Of a stretch of 64,000 nucleotides of DNA, positions 2,005 to 64,000 are shown one piece after another. A program made the position numbers and the translations under genes. This DNA comes from Escherichia coli. GTDB lineage: Bacteria; Pseudomonadota; Gammaproteobacteria; Enterobacterales; Enterobacteriaceae. Where the stretch lies: the NCBI RefSeq assembly GCF_024502345.1, contig NZ_JALDNN010000001.1, one strand, 5' to 3'. The notes below the pieces were generated by a model. The model searched no databases and was not told where the DNA came from. It saw nothing but the letters and a program-made list of their open reading frames with translations. Positions within the stretch are counted from its first letter, which is position 1; each line of letters starts with the position of its first letter.

Positions 2005-2010
2005 AACTTT

Positions 2011-2049
2011 AAACAAATAGCCATCTTTACATCTAGATGGCTATTTGTT
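2011..2049. terminator. Hairpin with about 14-bp perfect stem between convergent genes; probable bidirectional terminator
   Basis: ACAAATAGCCATCT ... AGATGGCTATTTGT inverted repeat directly after the stop codons of the 321-aa gene and the integrase. Confidence 0.5.
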
Positions 2050-2052
2050 AAT

Positions 2053-3267: not shown

Positions 3268-3706
3268 CGTTGTTTCCTCCTGAAAGCAAGAATGCTTTGA
3301 CAGCCTGGGTTTGTTCGGGTGTCAGGGATAGGGTTTGTTTGGTTGTTTTGATGGTTAAGCCGTAATGCTCTGAGAGGGAAAGTTGAAAGGATTGTTTGGC
3401 CCGTTCCTGGCGACGTTGCTCTCTTTCGTGAGCCTTATCGATTGCAGGATCGTAGCCCTCTTTGATTTTTACTCTGGCTTTATCCCTTAGCACAATGGCT
3501 TCTTTAATCGTGACGTCCGGCCATGCTCCAAATGTGAGGCTTTTCTCCTTCCCCTCTATCCGGTACTTCATCCGCCAGCACTTTGACCCCGTTGGATTCA
3601 CCAACAAAAAGAGCCCTCTGCCGATAGAAAATTTGTAAGGTTTACTACGGGCATCAAGTGACTTTATTATTTGATTATTAATGATTTTTTGTTCTTTTGG
3701 TGGCAT
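3254..3706 (-). pseudogene. Integrase N-terminal fragment (150 codons, arm-binding domain only), stops 14 bp inside the start of the intact integrase
   Basis: Translation MPPKEQKIINNQIIKSLDARSKPYKFSIGRGLFLLVNPTGSKCWRMKYR... resembles P4-type integrase N-termini but lacks the catalytic domain. Confidence 0.6.
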
Positions 3707-3862: not shown

Positions 3863-3957
3863 TGGCGGAAGATCACAGGAGTCGAACCTGCCCGGGACCG
3901 CTGGCGGCCCCAACTGGATTTGAAGTCCAGCCGCCTCACCGGAGACGACGATCTTCC
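3863..3957 (-). tRNA. selC: tRNA-Sec (selenocysteine tRNA), 95 nt
   Basis: Reverse complement reads GGAAGATCGTCGTCTCCGGTGAGGCGGCTGGACTTCAAATCCAGTTGGGGCCGCCAGCGGTCCCGGGCAGGTTCGACTCCTGTGATCTTCCGCCA, the E. coli selC sequence. Confidence 0.95.
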
Positions 3958-7960: not shown

Positions 7961-8012
7961 TCTATTGACGGAATGCCGGGTACGTCTGAGTCGTACCCGG
8001 CGAGATTGATGT

Positions 8013-9722
8013 TTACCGCACCGGCTCCGTCGATGTAACTTCACCGCTGGAAACGATGCCAGCATTCATGGTTTGAGTCACTTGCTGCTTTGCGGCGTTC
8101 ACGGTATGCAATTGCCCGCTAACCGTAGGTTTCAGCGGGGCATTGGCCTGAATATCTCCACTGGCGGTAAGCTGAATATTGCCGTCGCCAGTCAACGGTA
8201 ATTCAGGCCATCCCCATTGTTGCAAAATATTCACCGGCACACCGCGTCCATTCAGGCTGATATGGGTCTGACGTTGTGGCGTTTGTGAAACACTGGCAGT
8301 GGCTTCCAGAATGCCTTTTTCAGTAAATGCACTCAGTTCGCTGATATTCACCGTGCTGCTGTTGGCGGTCAGCGCCAGCGACGGGCGACGAACATCAACA
8401 CGATTGAATGTCGCGGCGGCGGCATTCAGATTCGCCGAGCCACTCCAGACGCCCCATTTATGATCGGTAACCAGCGTCAGGTTGGCACCGTAACCATCGA
8501 GCGCGGTGAGCTGCCACGGGAAGTCAGGGTCGATATCAATGATCAGATTGCGGCTGGCGCTAAATCTCTTCAGTTGCAGGCTGTTTAACCAACCCGGTGT
8601 CGTTTCCATCCACAACTGTTGCCAGTTTTTCGGCAAGGTATATTCCAGCCCGGCAATTGCCGCATCATCAAGGAGTAACGTTTTCCCGTCACGCAGCCAG
8701 TTCCCTGACGTTCTGACCATACCCCCTTCCCAGCGGCTGGTGAACTGGCGCAGCGCTACGCCCTGCGGGGAAAATTCCGCGTTTATAATCGGGTCAAATA
8801 AATGCAGTGAACCATAAATGAACTCGCTGGCGTTCATCGACAGTTTGCCTTCCTGTGTCTGCCAGTCATCTTTACTGAAGGTCATGTTGCGCAAGCTGAG
8901 ATCGAGGTCGGTCACCGCCCAGTCCGGACCTTGCAGACGAGCATCGATCACTTCCAGGCGACCAATCTGCAACGACGGGACAGAGCGTAATGGCGCAAAG
9001 AAGTCGGTTAGCGATTTTTCGCTTTGTAGACGGATATCCGCCATGCGCAGATTTTCCACTTGCCAGCTGCCGTCGGCGTTACGCTGCGCGTTTCCGGTTA
9101 ATGTCCCGCGCGCGATGTCGGCACCCAGGTTAGTCAGCGTAACGCGATCGTTATCAATACTGCCTTCAATCAGTACATTGGTGGCAGGAACATCATTGAG
9201 CGAAAGCGATCCGGCACTAAACTGAATCTGCGCCTTCGTACCCAGCACTTTACCGGCTTCTGGTGACCACGGAACCACGCCGCCATTTACCCGCTGCGCG
9301 CTCAGTTTCCATTCGCTATTCGGGCTATTAAACGCCATATCACGCAGTTGCAGACGATCGGCTTTGAACGGTAGCGGCGCGGTCTGGCCGGTGAGATTCA
9401 GCGTCCCGTTTTCCAGCAGGATGGTATCGACATGGCGTGGTTCGGTCAGTTGCCGACTGCTTAGCGCAATGTCGACACTTTTTGCCACCAGGGTCGCGGG
9501 CTGACCATCACGACCAAACGTGACGTTCTCCAGCACGATATGAGATGGCGCGGAAAAACGGTGATCCATCGCCCCGAAGGCCAGATGATAGTCGCTATTC
9601 TCGGAAACCCATGCGCTGATATGTTCTGCTCCCCAGCGAGTTTGCAGAAGAAAATAGAGGCCAGCGATCACCACTAACAGAGCGATGAGAATGTAGAGAA
9701 GCAGCTTCCCAATAAATTTCAT
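8013..9722 (-). CDS. yicH: AsmA-family protein (569 aa)
   Basis: Translation matches YicH; start set at MKFIGKLLLY. Confidence 0.85.
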   Translation of the reverse strand: MKFIGKLLLYILIALLVVIAGLYFLLQTRWGAEHISAWVSENSDYHLAFGAMDHRFSAPSHIVLENVTFGRDGQPATLVAKSVDIALSSRQLTEPRHVDTILLENGTLNLTGQTAPLPFKADRLQLRDMAFNSPNSEWKLSAQRVNGGVVPWSPEAGKVLGTKAQIQFSAGSLSLNDVPATNVLIEGSIDNDRVTLTNLGADIARGTLTGNAQRNADGSWQVENLRMADIRLQSEKSLTDFFAPLRSVPSLQIGRLEVIDARLQGPDWAVTDLDLSLRNMTFSKDDWQTQEGKLSMNASEFIYGSLHLFDPIINAEFSPQGVALRQFTSRWEGGMVRTSGNWLRDGKTLLLDDAAIAGLEYTLPKNWQQLWMETTPGWLNSLQLKRFSASRNLIIDIDPDFPWQLTALDGYGANLTLVTDHKWGVWSGSANLNAAAATFNRVDVRRPSLALTANSSTVNISELSAFTEKGILEATASVSQTPQRQTHISLNGRGVPVNILQQWGWPELPLTGDGNIQLTASGDIQANAPLKPTVSGQLHTVNAAKQQVTQTMNAGIVSSGEVTSTEPVR

Positions 9723-9842
9723 GGTCTTCCATCCCGTGAAATGCACATAAGGGAGTTATGCACGATTTACGCGCAATCCTCAAGGCGGGAATGGTGAAAG
9801 AGGTGAGACTGCGGCGGTAATTATCTTACCGCCGCCAGTGAA

Positions 9843-11234
9843 TTACTGTTTTTCTGGTGGGAAAATCAGATTCAGCACGATGGCAGTAATACCGCCCGCG
9901 GCGATCCCGGAGGAGAGCAGGTTTTTCAGCCATTCAGGGGCAAACTGCAAAATCAGCGGCTGCTGAGACACGCCCAGACCAACCGCCAGCGACAGCGCGA
10001 TAATCAGAATCGCCCGACGGTTCAGCGGCTCACGAGAAACGATACGCACACCGGAGGCGGCGATGGTGCCAAACATTACAAGCGTTGCGCCGCCCAGAAC
10101 CGGTTCTGGAATGTGTTGTACAAAACCGCTCACTGCCGGGAACAGACCCAGCACGATCAACATCAGCGCGACGACAAAACCGACATAGCGGCTGGCAACA
10201 CCGGTCAACTGGATCACTCCGTTGTTCTGCCCGAAGCAGGAGTTCGGGAAGGTGTTAAACACCGCCGAAACAAACGAGTTCAGGCCGTTTGCCAGCACGC
10301 CGCCTTTCAGGCGTTTCATGTACAGCGGACCGGACACTGGCTGTTCGGAAACGTCAGAGGTCGCCGTGATATCGCCAATGGTTTCCAGCGAAGTGATCAT
10401 AAAGACCAGCATCAGCGGCAGCAGCAGACTCCATTCAATGCCAAGACCGTAATAGAGCGGCGTTGGCACCATAATCAGTTCTTGCGTCATCGGTTCGTTG
10501 CTTTCTGGCAACATGCCCATAAACCACGCCAGCGCATATCCGGCCGCCATCGCAATCACCAGTGAGGCCACGCGTAAGTAAGGGTTACGTTGACGGTTAA
10601 GCAGGATAATTAAGGCTAAGACCACGCCTGCCAGCAGCAGATTTTTCGGTGCGCCGAAGGTGTTATCGCTCATGGCTGCGTAACCGCCGCCAATTGAGGT
10701 CAGCCCCACCTGAATTAGCGACAGGCCGATAATCATCACCACAACGCCAGAAACCAGCGGCGTAATAATGCGGCGCGCCAGATGCAGAACACGGGAGATC
10801 ACCATCTCGGTGCAACTTGCCAGCATCAACGTGCCGAACAAAGCCGCCATCATGGTAGGAACATCAGCACCACCGGTTTTCAGCGCGGTACCGCCCATAA
10901 TCAGCGGGGCAACAAAGTTGAAGCTGGTGCCCTGAATAGACAACAGCCCGGAGCCAACCGGACCCCAGGCCTTAATTTGAATAATCGATGCCACACCGGA
11001 GGCAAACAGCGACATACTAATAATGTGTTGCGTGTCTTGTGCCGGTAAACCCAGCGCCTGGCAGATTAATAGCGCTGGCGTGATCACCGCAACGAACATT
11101 GCCAGCAAATGCTGACAGGCGGCAAACAGGGTTTGAGGAAGCGGCGGACGATCTTCAAGACGGTAAATCAGTTCGCTGTTTTGAGTCTGCGCAACCGGTT
11201 GCGCACTTTCTGACTCGAGGGTGGAAACAGACAT
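9843..11234 (-). CDS. xanP: Xanthine permease, NCS2 family (463 aa)
   Basis: Translation matches XanP (YicE); start at MSVSTLE. Confidence 0.9.
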
Positions 11235-13588: not shown

Positions 13589-15654
13589 CGTTCCGTCTCC
13601 GGCATCCAGCGTTCTATCAAGGCTTTTGCCTGTTGTGGGTAACGTTCGTGAATATGTCGCGCCAGGCGCTGAACTTCCGGGATCATCGCCTGATCGCGCA
13701 GTAAATCCGCCACTTTAAATTCAGCATTACCCGTCTGACGCGTGCCTAACAATTCGCCAGGGCCGCGAATCTCCAGATCTTTTTGCGCAATCACAAAACC
13801 GTCGTTACTGTCGCGCAGCACTTGCAGGCGAATTTGCGCCGTTTTAGAAAGCGGCGTTTTGTAGAGCAGCACGCAGTGAGAAGCCACCGCGCCACGACCT
13901 ACGCGCCCGCGCAGCTGGTGTAACTGCGCCAGACCCAGACGCTCAGGGTTTTCGATAATCATCAGGCTGGCGTTAGGCACATCAACACCGACTTCAATAA
14001 CGGTAGTGGCAACCAGCAGATGTAGCTCACCTTGTTTAAACGACGCCATCACCGCCTGTTTCTCGGCTGGTTTCATCCGCCCGTGTACCAGGCCAACATT
14101 CAATTCTGGTAGCGCCAGTTTCAACTCTTCCCAGGTAGCTTCCGCCGCCTGCGCTTCCAGTAACTCTGACTCTTCAATCAACGTACAAACCCAGTACGCC
14201 TGACGACCTTCAGTTATGCAGGCGTGGCGCACGCGGTCAATGATGTCGGTACGGCGAGTATCAGGAATAGCGACCGTAGTCACTGGCGTGCGGCCTGGCG
14301 GCAGTTCATCAATGACCGAGGTGTCGAGATCGGCATACGCAGTCATCGCCAGCGTGCGGGGGATCGGCGTGGCGGTCATGATCAACTGATGCGGATGGAA
14401 GCCTTGCTGCTGGCCTTTCTCCCACAATGCCAGACGCTGATGCACGCCAAAGCGATGCTGTTCGTCGATAATCACCAGCGCCAGGCCGTTAAACTGCACC
14501 TGTTCCTGGAAGATGGCGTGTGTTCCGACAATCATCTGCACCTGACCGCTGGCGATGGCTTCCTGCTGTGCCAGCCGCGCTTTACCTTTCTGCTTACCGG
14601 CGAGCCAGCCCACTTCGATACCGAGCGGTGCAAACCAGTTACGGAAGTTATTGGCGTGCTGTTCGGCGAGTAATTCGGTTGGTGCCATCAATGCCACCTG
14701 TTTGCCGTGGGCAATCGCACGCAGCGCGGCGAGGGCAGCGACCAGCGTTTTACCGGAACCTACATCGCCCTGTACCAGGCGCATCATCGGCACATTCAGC
14801 GCCATATCGCGCTCGATCTCCGCCACCACGCGAGCCTGAGCGCCCGTTGGCTTGAACGGTAAGGCGGCAAGAAGTTTATTTTTCAGCGTGTCATTGGCGC
14901 TCAGCGGCTGGGCATGGAAACGTTGCGCTCCGGCGCGTAAGGCTAACATGCTGAGGTTATGCGCCAGCAGTTCTTCCAGAATCAGACGACGTTGCGTCGG
15001 ATGCTGCCCGGTTTCCAGATCGCTAAGTTGCAGCGTCGGCGGCGGGCGGTGCAAAGTGCGCAACGCTTCCGGTAGCGTCATCATTCCTTGTGACAGTTCC
15101 GGCGGCAGGAGTTCTTCAATGGCGCAGGTGTCGAGCAGATCCAGCGCCTGGTCGGTTAATTTACGCAGCGTGGCCTGCTTTACGCCTTCGGTTGTTGGAT
15201 AAACCGGCGTGAGCGTTTCCTGCAACTCTGGCGTACTGAGATCGCCCTGCACGCGGTATTCCGGGTGGATCATCTCCGCACCATATTTACCGCGCTTTGC
15301 TTCTCCATAGGCCAGCACGCGGCGGCCCGTCGCCAGGCTATTTTTCATTGCCGCGTTGAAGTTGAAAAAGCGCATGGTGAGAATGCCGGAACCGTCGCTG
15401 ATCTGGCAGGTCATCATCCGCCGACCGCCGAAGGAGATATTGCAGTTCAGCACTTCGCCTTCCACCGTGGCATAAACGCCCGGTAGTAGTTCTCCGATGG
15501 GGTAGAGATGGGTGCGATCTTCGTAGCGCAGGGGAAGGTGTAACAGTAGATCCTGCACGGTATGCAGGTTGATTTTCGCCAGTTTGTTACTAAGTGCTGC
15601 GCCAACGCCCGTTAGGGAACTGAGTGGGACAGCATCTAACAGGCGACCTTTCAT
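13573..15654 (-). CDS. recG: ATP-dependent DNA helicase RecG (693 aa)
   Basis: Translation matches RecG; start at MKGRLLDAVPL. Confidence 0.9.
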   Translation of the reverse strand: MKGRLLDAVPLSSLTGVGAALSNKLAKINLHTVQDLLLHLPLRYEDRTHLYPIGELLPGVYATVEGEVLNCNISFGGRRMMTCQISDGSGILTMRFFNFNAAMKNSLATGRRVLAYGEAKRGKYGAEMIHPEYRVQGDLSTPELQETLTPVYPTTEGVKQATLRKLTDQALDLLDTCAIEELLPPELSQGMMTLPEALRTLHRPPPTLQLSDLETGQHPTQRRLILEELLAHNLSMLALRAGAQRFHAQPLSANDTLKNKLLAALPFKPTGAQARVVAEIERDMALNVPMMRLVQGDVGSGKTLVAALAALRAIAHGKQVALMAPTELLAEQHANNFRNWFAPLGIEVGWLAGKQKGKARLAQQEAIASGQVQMIVGTHAIFQEQVQFNGLALVIIDEQHRFGVHQRLALWEKGQQQGFHPHQLIMTATPIPRTLAMTAYADLDTSVIDELPPGRTPVTTVAIPDTRRTDIIDRVRHACITEGRQAYWVCTLIEESELLEAQAAEATWEELKLALPELNVGLVHGRMKPAEKQAVMASFKQGELHLLVATTVIEVGVDVPNASLMIIENPERLGLAQLHQLRGRVGRGAVASHCVLLYKTPLSKTAQIRLQVLRDSNDGFVIAQKDLEIRGPGELLGTRQTGNAEFKVADLLRDQAMIPEVQRLARHIHERYPQQAKALIERWMPETERYSNA

Positions 15655-15659
15655 GGCAC

Positions 15660-16349
15660 TTACTCTGCAGCCTGCATAGTAGCCCACCAGTCGGCATCAG
15701 CTTCGATCTCGCCTTGCTGATTGACGTGGGGATAAGGCAGGCCTTTGCGTTTTGCGACTTTCGCCAGCACCGGATAGCCGCCTTCAAACAACAGGCGTTG
15801 TTGCTCTGCTTCCGGCAACATGCTGTTTTCACGCAGGTACATGCCCGCATTTTGCCGCTGGCGCTGGGCTTCGTAAAGAATGAGGGCTGAGGCAACGGAA
15901 ACATTCAGCGATTGCACCATGCCAATCATCGGAATGATGATGTCCCGATCCGCCAGGGCCAACGCTTCCTCAGTGATGCCCGTTTTCTCCTGACCCATCA
16001 AAATGCAGGTCGGGCGAGTGTAATCAATTTCGCGAAAATCGACAGCGTTATCAGAAAGATGGGTTGCCAGAATTTGCATGCCCTGGCCTTTGAGATGAGC
16101 GACGGCATCGCCAATGGTGCGGTGCGTTTTCACCTGCACCCAACTGTTGCTACCCGCCGCCGCAGAGGCCATGGTACGCATGCGGCTACCAGGCCAGACG
16201 GCGTGAACTTCATGTACGCCAACGGCATCTGCGGTACGAATAATCGCAGAAACGTTATGAGGTTTGTGGACCTGCTCCATGCAGACGGTCAGATCAGGCT
16301 GCCGCCTGGCGAGCATTTCGCAGATGCGTGCATAACGTGTTGGGTTCAT
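15660..16349 (-). CDS. trmH: tRNA (Gm18) 2'-O-methyltransferase (229 aa)
   Basis: Translation matches TrmH/SpoU. Confidence 0.9.
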   Translation of the reverse strand: MNPTRYARICEMLARRQPDLTVCMEQVHKPHNVSAIIRTADAVGVHEVHAVWPGSRMRTMASAAAGSNSWVQVKTHRTIGDAVAHLKGQGMQILATHLSDNAVDFREIDYTRPTCILMGQEKTGITEEALALADRDIIIPMIGMVQSLNVSVASALILYEAQRQRQNAGMYLRENSMLPEAEQQRLLFEGGYPVLAKVAKRKGLPYPHVNQQGEIEADADWWATMQAAE

Positions 16350-16355
16350 AAAACA

Positions 16356-18464
16356 TTAATTTCGGTTTCGGGTGACTTTAATCACGTCTGGCATCACGCG
16401 GATTTTGCGCATGATATTCGCCAGATGCACACGGTCACGAGCGGTCAGACGAATAAAGGCGCTGTAGACGCGACCATCTTTCTCTTCCGTATTCAAACTT
16501 TGAATATTCGAAGTCGTGGTGTTAATTGCCGCCGTCAGGTTTGCCAGCGCGCCCTGATGATTGAACATCTCCACCTTGATTTCGGTGATGAACTCCTGCG
16601 CCGTCTCTTTATCCCATTCCACAGCCATAAACTTCTCTGGCTCTTTCTGGTAGCCACGGATGTTACGGCAGGATTCATGGTGGATCACCAGACCTTTACC
16701 GGGGCTGACGTGGGCGATAATCGGGTCGCCAGGAATAGGGCGGCAGCATTTCGCAAAGGTGATCAGCACGCCATCGGCACCTTTAATGGGCAGATGTCCG
16801 TGACTTTGGGTTGCCGGTGGAATGGAGGCGTCCCCATGTTGCAGATTTTTCGCGACCACCACGCTCATTGCGTTACCAAGTCCGATTTCTGCCAGCAGAT
16901 CGTCAAGCGTTGCCAGCTTCATACGATCCAGCTCGCGCTGAATATTTTCCTGCGGGATTTCATTCAGCTTACGGCTACCACCCAAAGCATGGTTGAGCAG
17001 ACGACGGCCCAGGCTTACAGAATCATCACGCTTGAGGTTTTTCAGCAACTGACGAATTTTGGCGCGCGCTTTCGAGCTAACGACAAAGTTCAGCCACGCG
17101 GCATTCGGGCGAGCGCCGGGTGCGGTAATGATTTCAACGGTTTGACCGCTGGTAAGCGGCTGCGACAGCGGGTAAGGCTGACGGTCGACGCGTGCGCCCA
17201 CGCAGGCATGACCGATATCGGTATGCACTGCATAAGCGAAGTCGACAGGCGTTGCACCGGCAGGCAGTTCGACAATGCGCCCTTCCGGTGTGAAAACGTA
17301 AATCTCATCCGGGAAGAGATCGGATTTAACGCTCTCGATAAATTCAAACGAGCTACCGGCGCTTTGTTGCAGCTCCAGCAGGCTTTGCATCCAGCGCTGG
17401 GCGCGGATTTGTGCAGTCGTGCTGGTTTCGCCGTGCTCTTTATAAGCCCAGTGCGCGGCAACACCCATCTCCGCCATCTGATCCATATCTTCGGTACGGA
17501 TTTGGACCTCAACCGGCACGCCGTGCGGGCCAATCATCGAGGTGTGCAACGACTGATAGCCGTTCGCTTTTGGAATGGCGATGTAGTCTTTCACGCGACC
17601 CGGACGCGGCTTATACAGGCTATGCATCTGGCCGAGCACGCGATAACAGGTGTCGGAATCATTGACGATCACGCGGAAAGCGTAGATGTCCATGATCGAG
17701 TGAAAACGCTGCTCTTTGAGCACCATTTTGCAGTAAATCGAATAAAGATGCTTCTCGCGACCACTGACGCGGCACGGTATTCCCGCTTCCTGCAAACGCC
17801 CTTCGATTTCAGAGAGGATTTTTTGGATCATCTCTTTACGGTTGCCGCGCGCGGCTTTCACCACTTCTTTGATTACGCGATAACGGTTGGGATACAGCGC
17901 CTCAAAACCCAGCTCTTCGAGTTCGGTTTTAATGTGGTGGATACCTAAACGGTGCGCCAGCGGGCTATAAATTTCGAGAGTTTCACGGGCGATGCGGCGA
18001 CGTTTGTCCGGGCGAAGTGAGCCCAGCGTGCGCATGTTGTGGGTACGGTCGGCAAGTTTGATGAGGATGACGCGGATATCCTGCACCATCGCCATAATCA
18101 TCTTGCGAAAGTTTTCGGCCTGCGCCTCTTTCTTATCGCGGAACTTGAGCTTATCAAGTTTCGACACCCCCTCTACCAGCTCGGCGACGCTTTTACCAAA
18201 AAGCTGTTCCATGTCCTGGTAGGTGGCGGGAGTATCTTCAATCACGTCATGCAGCAGCGCTGCCATAAGCGTTTCATAGTCGAGTTTCATCTCGGCCAGA
18301 ATGCAGGCAACAGCTACCGGGTGCGTGATATAGGGTTCACCGCTTGAACGTGTTTGCCCCTCGTGAGCATCACGTGCAACGAGATACGCCTGCCGCAGAC
18401 GCTTGATTTGGTCTTCCGGCAGGTAGGTTTGAATCAGTTGATTCAGGCTTTCAAACAGATACAA
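16356..18464 (-). CDS. spoT: Bifunctional (p)ppGpp synthetase/hydrolase SpoT (702 aa)
   Basis: Translation matches SpoT. Confidence 0.95.
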   Translation of the reverse strand: MYLFESLNQLIQTYLPEDQIKRLRQAYLVARDAHEGQTRSSGEPYITHPVAVACILAEMKLDYETLMAALLHDVIEDTPATYQDMEQLFGKSVAELVEGVSKLDKLKFRDKKEAQAENFRKMIMAMVQDIRVILIKLADRTHNMRTLGSLRPDKRRRIARETLEIYSPLAHRLGIHHIKTELEELGFEALYPNRYRVIKEVVKAARGNRKEMIQKILSEIEGRLQEAGIPCRVSGREKHLYSIYCKMVLKEQRFHSIMDIYAFRVIVNDSDTCYRVLGQMHSLYKPRPGRVKDYIAIPKANGYQSLHTSMIGPHGVPVEVQIRTEDMDQMAEMGVAAHWAYKEHGETSTTAQIRAQRWMQSLLELQQSAGSSFEFIESVKSDLFPDEIYVFTPEGRIVELPAGATPVDFAYAVHTDIGHACVGARVDRQPYPLSQPLTSGQTVEIITAPGARPNAAWLNFVVSSKARAKIRQLLKNLKRDDSVSLGRRLLNHALGGSRKLNEIPQENIQRELDRMKLATLDDLLAEIGLGNAMSVVVAKNLQHGDASIPPATQSHGHLPIKGADGVLITFAKCCRPIPGDPIIAHVSPGKGLVIHHESCRNIRGYQKEPEKFMAVEWDKETAQEFITEIKVEMFNHQGALANLTAAINTTTSNIQSLNTEEKDGRVYSAFIRLTARDRVHLANIMRKIRVMPDVIKVTRNRN

Positions 18465-18812: not shown

Positions 18813-19574
<762 letters not shown>

Positions 19575-19601
19575 AGTGATTCACTGCAATAAAGACGATT
19601 C

Positions 19602-21989
<2,388 letters not shown>

Positions 21990-22280
21990 GGTTCTCTCCC
22001 TAAAAATCTGTCTGGCAGGGTAGCGATTTGTGCGCATTGTCACGATTGAGATTTTTTAAGGTGAGGGGGAATTGATAACTTGTAGTTATGTGAAATCGCT
22101 ATTTTCTGTAGCGGAGATGCATTCTTCTGACTTCTTGTCTGAGAAAATGCATAAGAAAAAATAGGTTAAAACTGAGGGGTGGAAAAGAAAGGTGCAATGT
22201 TTAGCTATTGTATTCACCGCACCTGGACTTTGGCTTACGCATCGGGTGTCTCAATCAACAAAAAGAGTTTTTAGTTTCTG

Positions 22281-22478
22281 CTATTTTTTCTCTGTAATTT
22301 TTACACTGTTTTCCAACTGCTTAATGCTGACCTGCGGGGTCGGCAACTCCTCAGGCATGGTTCCGCCAAGTTCCTGAATGGTTTGCCTCACCTTGCGACC
22401 TACGTCAAAGTGTGTGGTGTTAGCTTGCTGTTTTGAATTCACGCCATCCCGCTTAAGTTTTTCTTCTGTTTGGGTAGC
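22281..22478 (-). pseudogene. dinD: 3'-terminal remnant (about 65 codons) of DNA-damage-inducible gene dinD; 5' two-thirds absent
   Basis: C-terminal part of ORF 22281..22592 (ATQTEEKLKRDGVNSKQQANTTHFDVGRKVRQTIQELGG...KITEKK) matches the recalled DinD C-terminus and sits at the K-12 dinD position between yicC and yicG; the ORF's first 38 residues look non-coding. Confidence 0.55.
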
Positions 22479-22814
22479 TACTTTGAACCGGATAACCTCG
22501 AATGGGTGACTGGTGAGATTGGTGCGCCGCCGTTCGATGTGTCGGGTGTGGCCTACCTGCTTCATGGCATGGTGTCGTTCGATAAGCGCCACCAGATCGA
22601 ATCAACCCGGCGCACACTGGAAAGCATGGTTGCTGGTGGACTGCTTGAGCGGGTGACAGTGTATGAATCGCGCCAGATACGGCGCGGCGGTGAGACTAAC
22701 GCAACGGTCGTGCGCTACGGTTTACCCGGTCAGTGCGCTGTTATGCGCGATACTGGCGGCGCTGATAGCCTGGCTGATTCCGGTAATACTGCGGAGTTAG
22801 GTCTACCGGCATAG
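22470..22814 (+). CDS. Hypothetical 114-aa ORF inside the dinD islet; possibly a 5'-truncated gene
   Basis: ORF only; protein-like composition; no recognisable family. Confidence 0.25.
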   Translation: MGSYFEPDNLEWVTGEIGAPPFDVSGVAYLLHGMVSFDKRHQIESTRRTLESMVAGGLLERVTVYESRQIRRGGETNATVVRYGLPGQCAVMRDTGGADSLADSGNTAELGLPA

Positions 22815-22858
22815 CTTACCCGTGGAGAAATGAATCATCGAATGAGTTTGGTCGGGAG

Positions 22859-23539
22859 TTATTCCACCAGCAAAAATGGCGTTGCCCGGTCTATGACGTT
22901 GATGCCAATTAACGAGCTAACATTTCGACCATTCACAATGCTATCCCGTTCAAGCAAATGCGCTATTTTTTCTACTTCATACCAGTATTGAGCCATGAGG
23001 GCTTTGGTCTTTTCAACGAGTTTAGAAAGCATTAACTCCCTGTTAATTTGCTTATTTGTAGCGCAGATTAAATCGAGCATGTCATTTACGTTAGCCATGT
23101 CATAGCGATGAGGTAGCGAATACTTTTTGTTGAAAATATCGTTGTTTTCGTAAAGGGCTTCGCTTACTGGTCCGGCGAGGGATACAAAAGCGGCCTTTTT
23201 TGCATCGCGCTTTATACCATCCGCATAGTAACGTATGAAAGGGATAACTTTACCATTCTGCCCAACTACACCAGATTTACTATCCCGCAAACGCCCGAGA
23301 TCGTGGCTGTGAATTATGCTGTGTTTAACAACGCCCAAACACTTGGCCTCATGTACATGTTCGCCAGCAACGTAACCGTATTCATCCATAACGGCGATAA
23401 CAATATTGGTTTCACGCCCACCGATATGACCAGGAATAACCGGGACAATTGTGGCAAATTCATTACCGTTAATTGTGCCCTGATAGGCGTTCAGATGAGG
23501 GGCGGCCTCAGAAATTAATCTGCTTTTTTCGATGTTCAT
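22859..23539 (-). CDS. Hypothetical protein (226 aa), cargo of the integrase islet in dinD; no family recognised
   Basis: Uninterrupted ORF with visibly lower GC than the flanking backbone, directly downstream of an intact integrase gene; contains a His cluster (GHIGG, EHVHE, HSIIHSHD). Confidence 0.6.
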   Translation of the reverse strand: MNIEKSRLISEAAPHLNAYQGTINGNEFATIVPVIPGHIGGRETNIVIAVMDEYGYVAGEHVHEAKCLGVVKHSIIHSHDLGRLRDSKSGVVGQNGKVIPFIRYYADGIKRDAKKAAFVSLAGPVSEALYENNDIFNKKYSLPHRYDMANVNDMLDLICATNKQINRELMLSKLVEKTKALMAQYWYEVEKIAHLLERDSIVNGRNVSSLIGINVIDRATPFLLVE

Positions 23540-23761
23540 TTTCAGTCTCCGTTAGGCGGCGGTGAGATTGTCCGGGTACCACATGGTTGACACTTAGATC
23601 CAACACGTAGTCGTACCTATCCAGTGAAAACCATTCCATCACATCGCCGTATTTAGCCCGTTTCATAACGCCACCTTTTACGCTGCGCCTTATTTTGTGA
23701 TTGAGCCAGGCGGTAAGGCTTCCCGCTTTTCGCCCCGTCGGGCTAGACTCAATCTATTCAG

Positions 23762-25021
23762 TTAGTTCGCCCTTCTGAGAGGCGTCACGTTGTAATCTTC
23801 GCCCTTCTCCAGAGCCACCAGCAAGCCCGCCCACTGTGTTAACGCAGCCCGTCGCTCGTCAAAGTATTGGTGACGGTTATAAATCCCCTCTACGCCCTTA
23901 ATGCGATGATTGAGGCATCGTTCCGCCACTACCGGATCAACGCCCAGCGCTGCTAAATGGGTGCGGGCCGTGCGTCGGAAGTCGTGAATCGTGAAATTAG
24001 GCACATCCGGCATTTCGGCGCGAACCTTAGCCAGTGCTACGGGCAGGGTGCTTTCCTGAATATGGGGGATCATGCGGTTTTGCATCTTTCTGGCTGGCAG
24101 TACCCATGCGCTGTTGCATGAGAACGTTTTAAGCTCTCTCAGCCATTCGACGGCTGGCGGTGCTAATGGGATGTCTATAGCGTCGCCGTTTTTGCTGCGT
24201 TCCTCTGGCAAGCGCCATACGGCTTTATCAAAATCGAACTCCTCCCAGCGGGCGGCGCATAACTCCATTTTGCGGACGCATAACGCTAACAGTAATTTGA
24301 ACGTGATTTCGTTCTGGCGACTGAATCCCTTAGCCGTGCGCATGGCTTTGAATAGCTGGATTAACTCATCGCGGGTTAACCAGCGGTCACGGGCAACTTC
24401 TTTCCCTCCGGCGTCTGCCACCTCAAAGGCTGAACAGGGGTTAATCTCCAGCGCGTGCCGTTTGATTCCGTAGTCGAATATGCGGCGCGTCCATCTCAGC
24501 ACGTCCGTTGCTATGGTCGGCGCTCCACGGTCAACAATACTTTTCAGCATGTCGTCGATATGGCGCGGCTTCACGTCCTCTACCTTCATGCTGCCAATGC
24601 AGGGGTTTATATCTTTGTCGATACGGCGGCGGAGTATATCTGGGTGCTTCCAGCGCGGCAGGATCTGACGCTCAAAGTATTCAGCGGCAAGCTCTGAAAC
24701 GCGCATGGCATTCTTCTCTGCTTCGATCTTCGCCAGTGCTTCGGCTTTCCGTTCCTGCTTCTCTCCTGCAACGTCATAGCCCAACGCAACGCGAGCCGAT
24801 AGCTCTTTGGCTGTCTCTCTGGCCTTTGATAGTGATAGCTCGGCATATGAGCCGATAACCATTGCTCGCTGCTTACCTGCGAATTTATAGCGAAAGCGCC
24901 AGAAAGGGACTGTGTAGTTTTTGGGGTAGCAAATATAAAGGCCGTTGCCATCGGCCCTTCCTTCAAATCTATCTCCGGCCTTTATCCATGCGCGGATCTG
25001 CATGTCTGTAATCTTTGGCAT
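23762..25021 (-). CDS. Tyrosine recombinase, phage-type integrase (about 419 aa), apparently intact
   Basis: N-terminal arm-binding region (GNGLYICY...FWRFRYKF) and catalytic residues (HDFRRT ... GIYNRHQY); start placed at MPKITD because the upstream ATG at 25057 lies inside a direct-repeat motif. Confidence 0.85.
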   Translation of the reverse strand: MPKITDMQIRAWIKAGDRFEGRADGNGLYICYPKNYTVPFWRFRYKFAGKQRAMVIGSYAELSLSKARETAKELSARVALGYDVAGEKQERKAEALAKIEAEKNAMRVSELAAEYFERQILPRWKHPDILRRRIDKDINPCIGSMKVEDVKPRHIDDMLKSIVDRGAPTIATDVLRWTRRIFDYGIKRHALEINPCSAFEVADAGGKEVARDRWLTRDELIQLFKAMRTAKGFSRQNEITFKLLLALCVRKMELCAARWEEFDFDKAVWRLPEERSKNGDAIDIPLAPPAVEWLRELKTFSCNSAWVLPARKMQNRMIPHIQESTLPVALAKVRAEMPDVPNFTIHDFRRTARTHLAALGVDPVVAERCLNHRIKGVEGIYNRHQYFDERRAALTQWAGLLVALEKGEDYNVTPLRRAN

Positions 25022-25144
25022 TGCGAATACCTGAACATTGAATGGGGGTGTGTACATAAACCGATGTACATAAAACCCATTATGTACACCACTATGTACA
25101 CGGCAATCGTGCGCTTTGTTGCTTCCTCATGATAGCCCATGATA

Positions 25145-25171
25145 ACAAAAAAGCCCGACAAAATGCGGGCT
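25145..25171 (-). terminator. Rho-independent terminator of yicC
   Basis: GCCCGCATTTTGTCGGGC hairpin followed by a T-run on the minus strand, about 40 bp after the yicC stop. Confidence 0.6.
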
Positions 25172-25210
25172 TTGCTGGTTTTGTGTATCTTTGTGATAGC
25201 TCTTAAATAT

Positions 25211-26074
25211 TTACTCGATATTCTGAATCTGCTCGCGCATCTGCTCAATCAACACTTTCAGCTCAATCGCGGAGTTTGTCACTTCGGCATTGATAGACTT
25301 CGACGCAAGAGTGTTCGACTCGCGGTTGAACTCCTGCATCATAAAGTCCAGACGACGACCAACGGCTTCTTTTTTCTTCAGAATGTTGTAGGTCTCTTTG
25401 ACATGCGCTTCGAGGCGGTCCAGCTCTTCGGCAACGTCAATTCGTTGTGCCAGCAGAACCAACTCCTGCTCCAGACGGTTGTTTTCCAACTGCACCTGAG
25501 CATCTTCCAGCTTCGCGACCAAGCGTTCACGCTGCCATTGCAGGATTTCCGGCATATGGGAGCGGACTTTGACCACTTCGGCGGTGACGCCTTCCAGACG
25601 CTGCTCGATCAATGCTTTCAGTGCCTGACCTTCGGTTTCGCGCGCGACAATAAAGTCGTCCAGGGTGCCATCCAACGCCGCGAGAATTTCAGCGGCAATG
25701 GCGTCAAGATCCTGCTCCTGGGCTGCCATCACGCCCGGCCAGCGCAGAATATCAACCGGGTTGATTTCCCCTTCGTCACTCTGCATTTTTACCCAGTTCG
25801 CGGCAGTTACCAGCTGTTTAGCCAGTTTTTCGTTGAGGATCAGCTCACCTTGCGCGCTAACATCTGGCTCATAGCGCAGGGTACATTCCACTTTACCGCG
25901 CGTCAGGCGAGAACGAATACGCTCACGAACGACAGGTTCAAGGCTACGGAACTGCTCCGGCAGACGAAAGTAAGTTTCCAGATAACGCTGGTTTACCGAG
26001 CGCATTTCCCAGGTTGCGCTCCCCCATTCACCCTTGATTTCACGCCGGGCGTAGGCGGTCATACTGCGGATCAT
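25211..26074 (-). CDS. yicC: YicC-family stress-induced protein (287 aa)
   Basis: Translation matches YicC. Confidence 0.9.
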   Translation of the reverse strand: MIRSMTAYARREIKGEWGSATWEMRSVNQRYLETYFRLPEQFRSLEPVVRERIRSRLTRGKVECTLRYEPDVSAQGELILNEKLAKQLVTAANWVKMQSDEGEINPVDILRWPGVMAAQEQDLDAIAAEILAALDGTLDDFIVARETEGQALKALIEQRLEGVTAEVVKVRSHMPEILQWQRERLVAKLEDAQVQLENNRLEQELVLLAQRIDVAEELDRLEAHVKETYNILKKKEAVGRRLDFMMQEFNRESNTLASKSINAEVTNSAIELKVLIEQMREQIQNIE

Positions 26075-34211: not shown

Positions 34212-34562
34212 AGTAAATAGCTGACTTATGGATGTGCTGGGGATTCTATGTATTTAGCTGTGGCTTTACCATTACTTTTCCCGTTTTTGACTTAAATAGC
34301 AATTTACCCGCCAATTCTTGCTGAACATCTATACTTTTTTTGTATTTTTATGCGATTCATTGATTTCTGCTGTACATGCAGGAAGGAATCGCAGAGCAAC
34401 AGTGAAAGAATATGGTTGCTAATGATTATATTTGATTGATTTCTTTATTGAAAATCAACAATGTGCTTAAAAATCATTCGGGTCGGATTGCCGCGAAAGA
34501 AGTGATACACTAGCGCGTCAATATCAGTGCGGTATCAGTATTCAGGTAGCTGTTGAGCCTGG

Positions 34563-34574
34563 GGCGGTAGCGTG
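34563..34574 (+). promoter_or_regulatory. ops element (GGCGGTAGCGTG) within a JUMPStart-like leader upstream of waaQ; RfaH recruitment site
   Basis: Exact ops consensus GGCGGTAGnnTG about 50 bp upstream of waaQ. Confidence 0.8.
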
Positions 34575-56116: not shown

Positions 56117-57135
56117 TGAACCAACGTAATGCTTCAATGACTGTGATCGGTGCCGGCTCGTACGGCACCGCTCTTGCCATTACCCTGGCAAGAAATGGCC
56201 ACGAGGTTGTCCTCTGGGGCCATGACCCTGAACATATCGCAACGCTTGAACGCGACCGCTGTAACGCCGCGTTTCTCCCCGATGTGCCTTTTCCCGATAC
56301 GCTCCATCTTGAAAGCGATCTCGCCACTGCGCTGGCAGCCAGCCGTAATATTCTCGTCGTCGTACCCAGCCATGTCTTTGGTGAAGTGCTGCGCCAGATT
56401 AAACCGCTGATGCGTCCTGATGCGCGTCTGGTGTGGGCGACCAAAGGGCTGGAAGCGGAAACCGGGCGTCTGTTACAGGACGTGGCCCGCGAGGCGTTAG
56501 GCGATCAAATTCCGCTGGCGGTTATCTCTGGCCCAACGTTTGCGAAAGAACTGGCGGCAGGTTTACCGACAGCCATTTCGCTGGCCTCGACCGACCAAAC
56601 TTTTGCTGATGATCTTCAGCAGCTGCTGCACTGCGGCAAAAGTTTCCGCGTTTACAGCAATCCGGATTTCATTGGCGTGCAGCTTGGCGGCGCGGTGAAA
56701 AACGTCATTGCCATTGGTGCGGGGATGTCCGACGGTATCGGTTTTGGTGCGAATGCGCGTACGGCGCTGATCACCCGTGGGCTGGCTGAAATGTCGCGTC
56801 TTGGCGCGGCGCTGGGTGCCGATCCTGCCACCTTTATGGGCATGGCGGGGCTGGGGGATCTGGTGCTTACCTGTACCGACAACCAGTCGCGTAACCGCCG
56901 TTTTGGCATGATGCTCGGTCAGGGCATGGATGTACAAAGCGCGCAGGAGAAGATTGGTCAGGTGGTGGAAGGCTACCGCAATACGAAAGAAGTCCGCGAA
57001 CTGGCGCATCGCTTCGGCGTTGAAATGCCAATAACCGAGGAAATTTATCAAGTATTATATTGCGGAAAAAACGCGCGCGAAGCAGCATTGACGTTATTAG
57101 GTCGTGCACGCAAGGACGAGCGCAGCAGCCACTAA
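56116..57135 (+). CDS. gpsA: NAD(P)H-dependent glycerol-3-phosphate dehydrogenase (339 aa)
   Basis: Translation matches GpsA. Confidence 0.95.
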
Positions 57136-59907: not shown

Positions 59908-60680
59908 GCGTTTTTCTCCCTCGAATGCTCATTATGCTCACCGGGCAGGTGGGTAATCCGTGCGTGGCGAGCCTGATCTTCATCGAATCGTTTCATGGTG
60001 GTGTGAACAAAACTAAGGTGCGCCATCATTGCTTTACGCGCCCCGTCGGCATCACCAGCAAAAATGGCGTCAATGACAGCCTGATGTTGTTCGGTCAGTT
60101 GTGAAAAAACCGGTGGCACCAGATACATCCGCTGACGGCTATGCTTCACTGAGGATTGCAGGACATCGAAGAAACCGCGCATGGTTTGCAGCAGCACGAT
60201 GTTATGTGAGGCTTCGGCAATCGCCAGATGAAAACGAACGTCCGCTTGTGAGGCGATATCCGGGTCTTCACTTAGCGTTGCTTCAAAGCAAAGCTGAATC
60301 TTTTCTTTGTCGCCAGGTGTGGCGCGCATTGCCGCATGCCATGCGGTGCTGGCTTCAATGGCGTAGCGGGCTTCCAGAATATCGAAACTGTAATCCGGAT
60401 CATCGGCCATCAGCGTTTTTAGCGGCTGGACGATGTTTTGCTCCGACCATGTGTCATGACGCCAGCGAATAAACGTCCCGCCGCCGCGTCGACTGAGCAG
60501 CACGCCTTCGCTCACCAGTTTTGCCAGCGCCTCGCGCAGTGAATTACGTGATACGCCGAGTTGCATCGCCAGTTGGCGCTCAGCGGGCAACTTCATGCCC
60601 GCTTCCAGGTTTTTTTCATCAATCAGCGCCCGCACACGATCGGCAACCTCGTCTGACAGGCGTCTGGGTAAAACAATCAT
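59904..60680 (-). CDS. lldR: GntR-family lactate regulator (258 aa)
   Basis: Translation matches LldR; start at [10 protein letters not shown]. Confidence 0.9.
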
Positions 60681-62335
60681 TAAGGAATCATCCACGTTAA
60701 GACATAGGCCTGAAGCGTGGTGATCACGCCCACCATACAGGTGAAGATCAGGCTGTGTTTGACAGTAAAGCGGAACAAATCAGACTCTTTGCCCACCAGG
60801 CCTACCGCCGCACAGGCGATAGCGATAGATTGCGGGGAGATCATCTTACCGGTGACGCCACCGGTGGTATTGGCGGCAACCAGCAACAGATCAGAGACGC
60901 CAATTTGTTGTGCTGCGGTGGCTTGCAGCGCGGCGAACAGGGCGTTAGATGAGGTATCCGACCCGGTCAGGAATACCCCCAGCCAGCCGAGGAACGGCGA
61001 GAAGAAGGTGAATGCATGACCGGTGTGCGCCAGTGCCAGCGCCAGTGTTGATGACAGTCCGGAATAGTTCGAAATAAAGGCGAATGCCAGCACCATACCG
61101 ATGGAGTAGATGGGCAGAGCCAGTTCTTTCAGCGTGCTGCCGAAGGTGCTGATAGCGTCAGACGGTTTCATCTTCAGCCAGACAACCGAGAGCAGCGCAG
61201 CAAACAGAATGGCGGTACCGGTGGCAGAGAACCAGTCAAACTTAAATACGGCGGCGTAAGCGGTAGCTTCGCTGACGACCGGCGGCATACGAGCAACCAG
61301 TTTGTCGAGATACGGCACCGGAATGTTGATCACCCATTCATAAAGCGCGCCACCCGATGCGAACAGGGCTTTAAACGGAGGGATACTCCACAGTGTTACA
61401 GTAGCTGTCAGGAACAGGAACGGTGTCCAGGCACGTAACACCTGACCCGCAGTGTAACCGGTGTGGGCCAGCGTCATATCAACCTGTGACGCCCCCAAAT
61501 CACCAAAACGGAATACGCGCACTGGCTGCCAGCGTTTGAGGAACAGCGTCAGGCAGAGCAGTGATACCAGCGAAGAGATAATGTCCGGCAGCTCCGGCCC
61601 AATGAAGTTAGAGCTAAGGTACTGAGCGATGGCAAACGAGCCGCCCGCAACCACGACCGCAGGCCACGTCTCTTTGATACCGCGCCAGCCGTCCATAATC
61701 GCCATGATCCAGAACAGCACGATAATGGTCATAAACGGTAGCTGACGCCCCACCATCTGGCCAATCTCAAAGCTGTCGATGCCTGTTACCTGTCCGGCAA
61801 CCAGAATTGGAATGCCCATCGCACCAAATGCCACTGGCGCGGTGTTAACAATCAGGCACAGCCCGGCGGCGTATAACGGTTTAAAGCCCAGACCGACCAG
61901 CAATGCGGCGGTAATTGCTACCGGTGCGCCAAAGCCTGCGGCTCCTTCAAGGAAAGCGCCGAAACAGAAACCGACGATCAGCATTTGCAGACGCTGGTCA
62001 GGGGTTATCGAAAGAATTGACGAGCGAATGATGTCAAACTGCCCGGTTTTCACCGAGATCTTATAGACGAACACCGCTGCAATAATGATCCACGCGATGG
62101 GCCACAAACCATAGAAGAAGCCATAAACCACCGAGGCCAGCGCGTTAGCGACCGGCATTTTATAGAACAGCAAAGCCACGGCAAGGGCGATTGCCACTGT
62201 CCATGAAGCGGCGACGTATCCTTTCAGTTTGAGCTTAATCAGCGCAAAGAAGAAAAACAGGATGGGAAGCGATGCTATCAGACTGGAAAGCCAGATATTC
62301 CCGGCGGGATCGTAGTTTTGTTGCCAGAGATTCAT
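60680..62335 (-). CDS. lldP: L-lactate permease (551 aa)
   Basis: Translation matches LldP; start at [10 protein letters not shown]. Confidence 0.9.
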
Positions 62336-62619
62336 TGCAGGTCTCCTGGAGTCCACGCACATCGTGTAATGAGTCTGTTGCTCATCTACTTGTCACACGT
62401 TGTGTAAAAGTGGCACTGCCAATTGTGTTGTGTAGGGATAATGACAATGAATGGTTAACTAAATGTTATGTATTGGCAACATTGATGTGAGTTTTAATTG
62501 GGGAATTGTGAACCAGAGGTCAGATAAGCGAAGAATTGGTAGGGCCAATTCTTGTGGGGGGAGATGTCTGGTAAAGAAAAGGGCAATCCTCATCAGAGAA
62601 TTGCCCTTAGATTGTTGAC

Positions 62620-62740
62620 CCGGAGCGCCTTATCTTGCCAGATGCGGCGTGAACACCTTACCCGGCCTATAGGAATGTGCAGAATCACCCTGTAGGCCTG
62701 ATAAGCGTAGCGCATCAGGCAATTTGGCGTTTGCCCTTAG
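62620..62740. repeat. REP/BIME-type repetitive extragenic palindromes
   Basis: GCCGGATGCGGCGTGAAC...CCGGCCTA and GTAGGCCTGATAAGCGTAGCGCATCAGGC match the REP consensus. Confidence 0.75.
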
Positions 62741-62761
62741 TCACACTAACTTAATGGATCA

Positions 62762-64000
62762 TTACCACTGAATACCGGCACCGAGTGCGGCGGAGTATTC
62801 ACCCTGGCTATTGGTACTACCTTGTAATTTGTAGACCCAACGACCATTGGCGCTCACCATCGATACACCTAAAGCAACTGCCGATTCACCGTTGTAAGTA
62901 CCGCCACCAATAGAAGCCATGCTGGCACCTGGAGTGTAAGCCTGCGGCAGACCGGTCATTGCCATTGCAGAAGCGATACCACCGCTCAACTTGCTTTCAG
63001 TTTTAGACAGTTTGTTATCCATCTCAACCATGCGCTGATCGGTGTATTGCTTTGTTTCCTGCACGCTTTGCTTCAACTGCGCGTAGTTCACCGCGTCGTT
63101 GTTGTTCACACCTGCGGAAACGTTGCTGATGCGAGTCGTACCTCCGTTGCCACCACCGAGAGTGATGTTGCTGTAGTCGATAGAGCCATCCGCTTTGGTG
63201 TCGTAGCGAACGCCGCCTGCTTCAGAAGATTTCAGCTGCGACACGTTAACCGCATCGGTGGCATTAACACCGGCAGCTACGTTGGTGATACGGCGCTGGT
63301 TGGTAGAAGAACCCACAGAGATCGTGTTTTCTTCGTTGGCCACGGAGCCTGTACCCAGAGCGACGCTGTTGTCAGCGGCAGCAATGGAACCAGAACCAAT
63401 CGCAACGCTATCTTTACCCTGGGCGTTGGCATCTACGCCATCGGTGTTGGTCTTGAAGTACTTGGTGCTACCGGTGGTCACGATATCGCCAATACCGTTT
63501 TCGATATTAGTAACGCGAGTATCCAGATTAGTGACCTGATTGTTCAGGTTAGTAATGCTCTGGGTATTTTGCGCTACGCGCTCATCAGTGACTTTCAACT
63601 GACCCACGTTAACCGCATCGGTATCCGCTGAACCAGCTGCGACGTTGGTGATCTGGCGTTGACCGTCTTCACTACCGACAGAAAACTCACCTACAGAGTT
63701 CTGCGGTGCGTCCATGTTGTAGGCGGTGTAGCCAGTCTGTGCACCACGGGTGGTCTGAGAACCGTTACCCATTGCAATACTGTTTGCATGGTTTGCGCGT
63801 GCGTTACTGCCGATAGCAATACCGTTGATCGCATCAGCCAGAACCAGAGTGTTCAAACCGATACCAATACCTGCATTACCATTAACGACAGTTTTCGCAC
63901 CCATTGCCAGCGAGTCTTCACCAACGGCCAGTGAGTCTTCTGCCGTTGAGTTGGCGTGATAGTACTTGGTTGGCGTAGTGGCGACCGCTCCAATAGCGTT
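62762..64000 (-). CDS. Trimeric autotransporter adhesin, C-terminal part with YadA-like membrane anchor (UpaG/EhaG-like); 5' end outside the window
   Basis: Repeated NVAAG...DAVNV.QLK neck motifs and a C-terminal anchor ending ...[10 protein letters not shown]; minus-strand frame stays open from 63904 to the window edge (checked by hand). Confidence 0.8.

Follow-up and report, generated by a model that had tools for sequence, protein, structure and literature searches.

The stretch of Escherichia coli DNA analyzed here, 64,000 nucleotides in length and referred to below as the window, ends inside an open reading frame, which raises the question of which gene this frame belongs to and whether that gene is intact in the strain from which the DNA came. 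A preliminary description of the sequence had placed a YadA-type adhesin gene next to lldP, with its frame still open at the window boundary, and both points were borne out. The minus strand can be translated without a stop from the window edge at position 64000 to a TAA codon at positions 62762 to 62764 (412 codons), Pfam recognizes head, stalk, and anchor modules in the translation, and 426 nt separate the stop codon from lldP, which follows on the same strand. The region from 62762 to 64000 very probably belongs to the chromosomal adhesin gene that goes by the names upaG (uropathogenic E. coli), ehaG (EHEC), and sadA (Salmonella). This is a known gene at a known locus, and there is nothing new in the gene identity; the value of the finding lies mainly in correct annotation, and in showing that the UpaG/EhaG/SadA adhesin locus lost by K-12 is present in an E. 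coli of commensal type.

Reading frame and modules of the adhesin 3′ end

Since the adhesin is encoded on the minus strand, the window holds the 3′ (C-terminal) end of the gene, and the gene start lies beyond position 64000. The portion bounded by an ATG in the mechanical list of open reading frames (ORFs) covers only 62762 to 63904. The 412 codons (62765 to 64000, minus strand) correspond to residues 1287 to 1698 of a 1698-aa allele and, as part of the last 1239 nt of the window, are 100% identical to those of FDAARGOS_943 and FDAARGOS_944. They make up the 3′ quarter of the adhesin gene and encode the part of the stalk nearest the membrane together with the outer-membrane anchor. All Pfam matches in this part were far over the curated cut-offs: three stretches of YadA_stalk (E = 3e-33), three stretches of YadA_head (E = 1e-13), and YadA_anchor (PF03895), which aligned to residues 352 to 412 over 60 of 60 model positions (E = 9e-20; 71 bits versus a cut-off of 22.7). 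Passenger modules, both neck/stalk and head repeats, are thus present in the window, as also seen from solved fiber fragments with more than 90% identity, and the PDB search additionally matched the anchor structures of Hia (3emo and 2gr7) and YadA.

The modules, all on the minus strand, are described here from the window edge toward the C terminus. The KYYHANS connector, then YadA-head-type beta-roll repeats, occupy residues 12 to 112 (63665 to 63967), where YadA_head matches and the PDB entry 2yo0 is more than 90% identical. They are followed by neck 1, which comprises 23 residues (63596 to 63664) and was located both by Pfam and by a DNA repeat search, and by a coiled-coil stalk (63491 to 63595) that joins neck 1 to the second head block and was delimited by alignment to 2yo0 and 2yo3 and by its sequence pattern. 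The second head block consists of the connector KYFKTNT, then head-type repeats (residues 180 to 233; 63302 to 63463), with the best YadA_head stretch at residues 193 to 219 and matches to both 2yo0 and 2yo3. Neck 2, of 24 residues (63230 to 63301), holds the best YadA_stalk stretch (residues 237 to 260) and belongs to DNA repeat families D1 and D2, while neck 3, the “Him” motif of 21 residues (63074 to 63136), corresponds to residues 1655 to 1675 of UpaG. The beta-domain segment, with a linker helix and four beta-strands per subunit, extends from 62765 to 63034 and equals UpaG residues 1689 to 1778 (PMC5670179); the YadA_anchor match lies within it at 62765 to 62947. Mapping to UpaG places the conserved tyrosine (Y1735 in UpaG) at 62894 to 62896 and the C-terminal tryptophan of the beta-signal (W1778 in UpaG) at 62765 to 62767, directly before the TAA. 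The C terminus reads ...GAGIQW, so the aromatic residue for recognition by BAM is present, and in UpaG the W1778 beta-signal matters for assembly (PMC5670179).

Two other readings of the frame have to be weighed. Plus-strand ORFs of 91 to 194 aa in the mechanical list overlap the region, and one of them, such as the 194-aa ORF at 63047 to 63631, might be the true feature, which would make the minus-strand frame a chance or antisense artifact. The probability of this is negligible, given that the minus frame matches Pfam models with E values down to 3e-33 and solved structures at E = 3e-136, and that RefSeq annotates the minus-frame coding sequence in thousands of genomes. In addition, 77 of the 91 differences from UpaG are synonymous in this frame (dS of 0.315 and dN of 0.015, giving a dN/dS of 0.048), and the comparison with EhaG of strain TR01 gives a dN/dS of 0.08. 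A dN/dS of 0.05 to 0.08 against UpaG and EhaG shows the frame to be a coding sequence under selection; the open minus-strand frame cannot be chance, and the antisense reading is ruled out by the Pfam and PDB scores together with the pattern of synonymous substitutions. Alternatively, the product could be Eib, Saa, or a YadA-like mobile-element adhesin, trimeric autotransporters of E. coli that would resemble UpaG and EhaG only in the shared anchor. A YadA_anchor and neck motifs are common to all trimeric autotransporters, and NCBIfam returned sub-threshold matches of the adhesin part to the YadA, Ata, EmaA, and BimA models. However, each of these matches was far under its cut-off, no UpaG, EhaG, or SadB model exceeded its cut-off either, and the identity of 97.6 to 98% to UpaG and EhaG spans all 412 residues rather than the anchor alone. 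Moreover, the chromosomal position equals that of the UpaG/EhaG locus, and none of the 4157 matching places in complete genomes was on a plasmid. Eib and Saa measure 392 to 535 aa (PMC12525524), against at least 906 codons on the contig LLYC01000117.1 (see below), so that neither the small size nor the prophage or plasmid carriage of Eib and Saa was found here, all places being chromosomal. Identity, size, and location thus rule out an adhesin of the Eib, Saa, or YadA type, to which we assign hardly any probability, and we continue with the identification as upaG/ehaG/sadA.

The lld locus and its state in K-12

The locus is defined by its conserved downstream neighbor lldP, the first gene of lldPRD, which appears in the ORF list at 60680 to 62335 on the minus strand. 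The order yibL, a DUF3251 (sadB-like) gene, the adhesin gene, and lldP-lldR-lldD is kept in every relative examined, namely, CFT073, O157:H7 TR01 (with ehaG), FDAARGOS_943, FDAARGOS_944, 14EC033, O145:H28 RM13514, and GCA_050022275.1, and the yibL side of the locus is present in seven of seven fully assembled relatives. The sadB-like gene, which lies outside the window, encodes 227 aa and ends 44 nt before the adhesin start in GCA_050022275.1, FDAARGOS_943, FDAARGOS_944, CFT073, and O157; its exact protein sequence is widespread (2964 index blocks). This arrangement agrees with earlier work, in which sadA of Escherichia, Salmonella, and Shigella was placed in the interval flanked by the mtl and lld operons, sadB, a lipoprotein gene upstream of it, was assigned to the same operon, and a 5-kb deletion that removes both genes from K-12 was described (Grin et al., 2014, PMC3953254). 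The preliminary description had considered genes of this type absent or degenerate in K-12. They are absent, since in MG1655 yibL is followed directly by lldP and both the adhesin gene and the upstream sadB-like gene are gone, but the K-12 state is a clean deletion and not a degenerate remnant.

One end of this deletion can be placed in the window. Two REP-like palindromic units (62620 to 62740) lie between the adhesin stop codon and a terminator-like hairpin, and an alignment with K-12 and CFT073 shows the K-12 sequence becoming homologous again at about 62692, inside the REP-like pair. The deletion junction therefore falls in a REP cluster, which suggests that this end of the deletion is associated with the REP-like repeats. 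These units also affect searches: a query that included the REP-like stretch matched a median of 17 places per genome, versus 1 place per genome for the coding part by itself. The intrinsic-terminator-like hairpin (62579 to 62608, minus strand) is a strong one, with a 13-bp stem followed by a T tract, and is kept in K-12, where it stands 3′ of yibL. Judging from these elements 3′ of the stop codon, transcription of the adhesin gene probably stops at the hairpin, before the lldP promoter region is reached, and thus the adhesin operon and lldPRD are probably separate transcription units. A sigma-70 promoter scan of 62250 to 62900 found nothing.

Several small differences surround the locus. Compared to an FDAARGOS_944-like sister group, lldP carries 5 differences per 55 bp at 61352 to 61406, and a further 14 differences per 210 bp occur at 56571 to 56781, while the adhesin 3′ end is identical; these clusters look like small recombination patches around the locus. 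The LldR encoded in the window carries a rare R244H, and a search with its exact sequence led to the identical contig described below. On the other side of the gene, an ISEc60 (IS4-like) transposase gene separates yibL from the sadB-like gene in FDAARGOS_944 and its sister assemblies (18849 to 20039 of the FDAARGOS_944 locus); it is present neither in FDAARGOS_943 nor in GCA_050022275.1, the nearest relative of the window. Close to this insertion site, immediately 5′ of the sadB-like gene, several draft contigs come to an end.

A few features elsewhere in the window and its relatives are recorded here. A small integrase islet (22859 to 25057) sits between yicG and yicC, where dinD is found in other strains. 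All of its features are on the minus strand and comprise a tyrosine integrase ORF (23762 to 25057), an int-alpA RNA (23687 to 23753), and a 226-aa ORF (22859 to 23539) with no credible Pfam match. None of 5426 complete E. coli genomes covered at least 80% of 21900 to 25300, and 21900 to 23394 was unmatched among the best-matching genomes listed. At 19688 to 21375, ligB appears to be interrupted within the OB-fold domain, which leaves a 347-aa and a 215-aa ORF that overlap; this reflects either a frameshift pseudogene or an error of the draft assembly. The window further contains the tRNA-Sec gene selC (3867 to 3957, minus strand), a common island integration site, and a JUMPstart element (34536 to 34574) upstream of waaQ (rfaQ) of the LPS-core operon. 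In FDAARGOS_944, the closest complete genome, slmA and pyrE flank a gene of the reverse transcriptase family, possibly a retron (15772 to 16731 of the locus compared).

Repeats, intactness, and allele diversity

The adhesin gene had been expected to be repetitive, with internal neck-motif repeats prone to assembly collapse. Within the window the only direct repeats are three copies of the neck-coding motif of about 70 nt, which are diverged from one another (63 to 87% identical), and Tandem Repeats Finder detected no tandem repeat in the adhesin part of the window. Copies of this length and divergence pose no problem for an assembler. The long repeats of the gene are located outside the window: a tandem array with a 255-nt unit, encoding 85-aa repeats, comprises about 3 to 4 copies that are up to 92 to 93% identical (14987 to 16180 of the FDAARGOS_944 locus) and lies 1.0 to 2.2 kb past the window edge. 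The draft contig LLYC01000117.1 (GCA_001484085.1; 65,704 bp) illustrates their effect. It is identical to the window at 14,000 of 14,000 nt and belongs to LLYC00000000, E. coli ccpm3961 (AN61), which was isolated from a healthy preschooler (PMC7133007). The contig extends 1482 nt past the window without a stop or frameshift, bringing the open frame to 906 codons in total, and then ends at the equivalent of residue 793, at the junction between ...TETVTNLGE and DALKWDK..., inside the array of 85-aa repeats. The in-frame stop or frameshift close to the window edge that would have contradicted the preliminary description is therefore absent. Two further draft contigs break at the same place in the array. 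We attribute the contig breaks in the adhesin gene to the 255-nt tandem repeats and not to the necks in the window. The warning about assembly is therefore justified with respect to the gene, but the problem takes the form of a break rather than a collapse, and it arises at the 255-nt repeats rather than at the neck motifs. As short-read assemblies break in these repeats, calls of presence, absence, or “truncation” of upaG/ehaG that are made from drafts may be artifacts.

Given that the matching contig stops inside the 255-nt repeats, the case for an intact gene rests on the near-identical assembly GCA_050022275.1, which has a single mismatch to the window over 14 kb and agrees at all 2721 shared bases of the gene. 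Its adhesin gene is intact, with 1698 aa and an ESPR signal peptide; no insertion sequence (IS) separates yibL from the sadB-like gene, and the yibL stop codon is 6.8 kb away from the lldP start. The ESPR domain (PF13018) was also found in the adhesins of FDAARGOS_943 and FDAARGOS_944, at an N terminus that lies outside both the window and LLYC01000117.1. The protein of GCA_050022275.1 differs at 4 residues from that of FDAARGOS_944, the latter being present as an exact match on at least 24 contigs. From these sequence comparisons, the gene appears most likely to be intact in the window's strain, as the 1698-aa allele.

Alternatively, the gene might be a pseudogene in this strain, with a whole 3′ end and a 5′ part that is disrupted by a frameshift, an inter-repeat deletion, or an IS. 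After all, LLYC01000117.1 ends at the residue-793 equivalent and leaves 47% of the gene (the 5′ 2.4 kb) beyond it, and disrupted versions exist among relatives: in strain 2018-05-2CC, which is 99.8% identical in the 3′ end, the adhesin and sadB-like genes are both annotated as frameshifted; in a common allele lineage, an internal deletion of 1.85 kb leaves split ORFs of 234 and 788 aa; and FDAARGOS_944 has ISEc60 upstream of the adhesin operon. However, the degenerate lineage represents a different allele whose 3′ part shows no more than 93.8% identity, and the frameshifts of two adjacent genes in 2018-05-2CC suggest an assembly error. Together with the intact 1698-aa gene of GCA_050022275.1, at 1 base of difference in 14 kb and none of 2721 in the gene, and with at least 24 contigs and two complete genomes in which the same or nearly the same protein is called intact, this makes a pseudogene improbable, and an intact 1698-aa adhesin remains the preferred reading. 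The degenerate allele itself is widespread. It has lost about 1.85 kb (gene nt ~1510 to 3363), including the tandem array; the deletion ends near neck-coding motifs on both sides, and the remaining ORFs of 234 and 788 aa were located at positions 6728 to 9945 in seven of the loci compared. Since it is present in complete long-read genomes, we consider it real and not the result of assembly collapse.

Of 5426 complete E. coli genomes, 4154, or about three quarters, contain the 1239-nt coding part of the adhesin, which is essentially single-copy, with all 4157 matching places on the chromosome at the lld locus. Its DNA identity to most of these genomes is only 80 to 95%, while the encoded protein is 95 to 100% identical among six alleles compared. 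This combination of low dN/dS and high synonymous divergence suggests that the anchor and the proximal stalk are under strong purifying selection and that the allele lineages are old or recombinant. The expected variation between strains does exist, although all of it lies outside the window: full-length alleles share 63 to 74% identity and range in length from 1539 to 1778 aa, and the head region (residues 100 to 560) is only 43 to 80% identical among alleles, including the characterized UpaG and EhaG. Alleles differ in length through their arrays of 85-aa repeats; the O145 allele, for instance, is without exactly 170 aa, or two units. As the window part comprises the conserved anchor and stalk, it is of no use for allele typing or for inferring the pathotype.

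Among the 5426 complete genomes, the best match of the window region reaches 99.5% over 24.5 kb, and a search with the exact 1698-aa protein identified a sister group with 7 to 74 mismatches. Between allele lineages, the flanks of the locus differ by about 1.5%, while dS in the adhesin is about 0.3. The 1698-aa allele occurs in STEC-related strains and most likely also in the commensal from a healthy child. Because its head is only 43 to 80% identical to those of the characterized UpaG and EhaG and its hosts are mixed, it is tempting to speculate that this allele is a functionally distinct adhesin with its own receptor or aggregation specificity and that the dS of about 0.3 stems from long-term balancing or diversifying selection together with recombination; at present we consider this rather unlikely.

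Proposed assembly and comparison with UpaG, EhaG, and SadA

How the adhesin might reach the cell surface can be outlined from the literature on UpaG, SadA, and other trimeric autotransporters. The complete polypeptide, about 1700 aa in length, would be exported by Sec via its extended signal peptide, after which the C-terminal segments of three subunits would preassemble in the periplasm. BAM would then insert a 12-stranded barrel with four strands contributed by each subunit, the homotrimer being presumed from the UpaG-delta2 construct, and the passenger would be threaded out to fold into a fiber of alternating head, neck, and coiled-coil segments. In line with this sequence of events, the C-terminal segment of UpaG forms a trimeric beta-barrel precursor in the periplasm that is subsequently inserted by BAM, followed by translocation of the passenger (Sikdar et al., PMC5670179). 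The upstream SadB-like inner-membrane lipoprotein may improve surface display, as SadB, a trimeric inner-membrane lipoprotein, raises both the surface display and the protease resistance of SadA (PMC3953254). The fiber would mediate binding to the extracellular matrix, autoaggregation, and biofilm formation, activities reported for UpaG and EhaG, which differ in cell tropism (PMC7247748; PMC12525524). Expression is possibly silenced by H-NS, considering that deletion of hns derepresses upaG (PMC7247748; PMC12525524). In GCA_050022275.1, the G+C content is 37% in the sadB-like gene and 33% in the region upstream of it, versus 50% for the window, and in our own reading this AT-rich composition fits silencing by H-NS.

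UpaG of CFT073 (c4424), EhaG of EHEC O157:H7, and SadA of Salmonella enterica were reportedly described by Valle et al. in 2008, Totsika et al. in 2012, and Hartmann et al. in 2012, respectively. The window part is identical to UpaG at 402 of 412 residues (97.6%), corresponding to UpaG residues 1367 to 1778, and window residues 287 to 412, which span the Him motif and the entire beta-domain with Y1735 and W1778, show no difference at all. Relative to the UpaG-delta2 construct, window residues 243 to 412 differ at one position. CFT073 has the same locus order (yibL, sadB-like gene, adhesin, lldP), and RefSeq uses the name upaG. Full-length identity between UpaG (1778 aa) and the probable allele of the window (1698 aa) is, however, only 69%, as the UpaG head (residues 100 to 560) is 49 to 69% identical to that of the 1698-aa allele and the number of 85-aa repeats differs, all outside the window. 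The divergent head region is also reflected in the NCBI name of the 1698-aa allele, which is just “YadA-like family protein” and not UpaG or EhaG.

The relationship to EhaG is similar. EhaG of O157:H7 TR01 is 98% identical in the window part and is a positional orthologue with the same operon structure, whereas its full length of 1579 aa is 74% identical to the 1698-aa allele. At the DNA level, the 3′ ends of typical O157 ehaG genes share only about 88% identity with the window, which indicates that the divergence is mostly synonymous and that the allele lineages are old or recombinant. As for SadA, the entries 2yo0 (E = 3e-136) and 2yo3 (E = 1e-90), which we take to be fragments of Salmonella SadA (the molecule name in the PDB is just “putative inner membrane protein”), align without gaps over window residues 1 to 338 at more than 90% identity. 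The SadA/SadB system of Salmonella occupies the same chromosomal position between mtl and lld, and there too a lipoprotein gene precedes the adhesin gene in a two-gene operon (PMC3953254), but SadA is shorter, at 147 kDa, and differs in its head and repeat make-up (PMC7247748).
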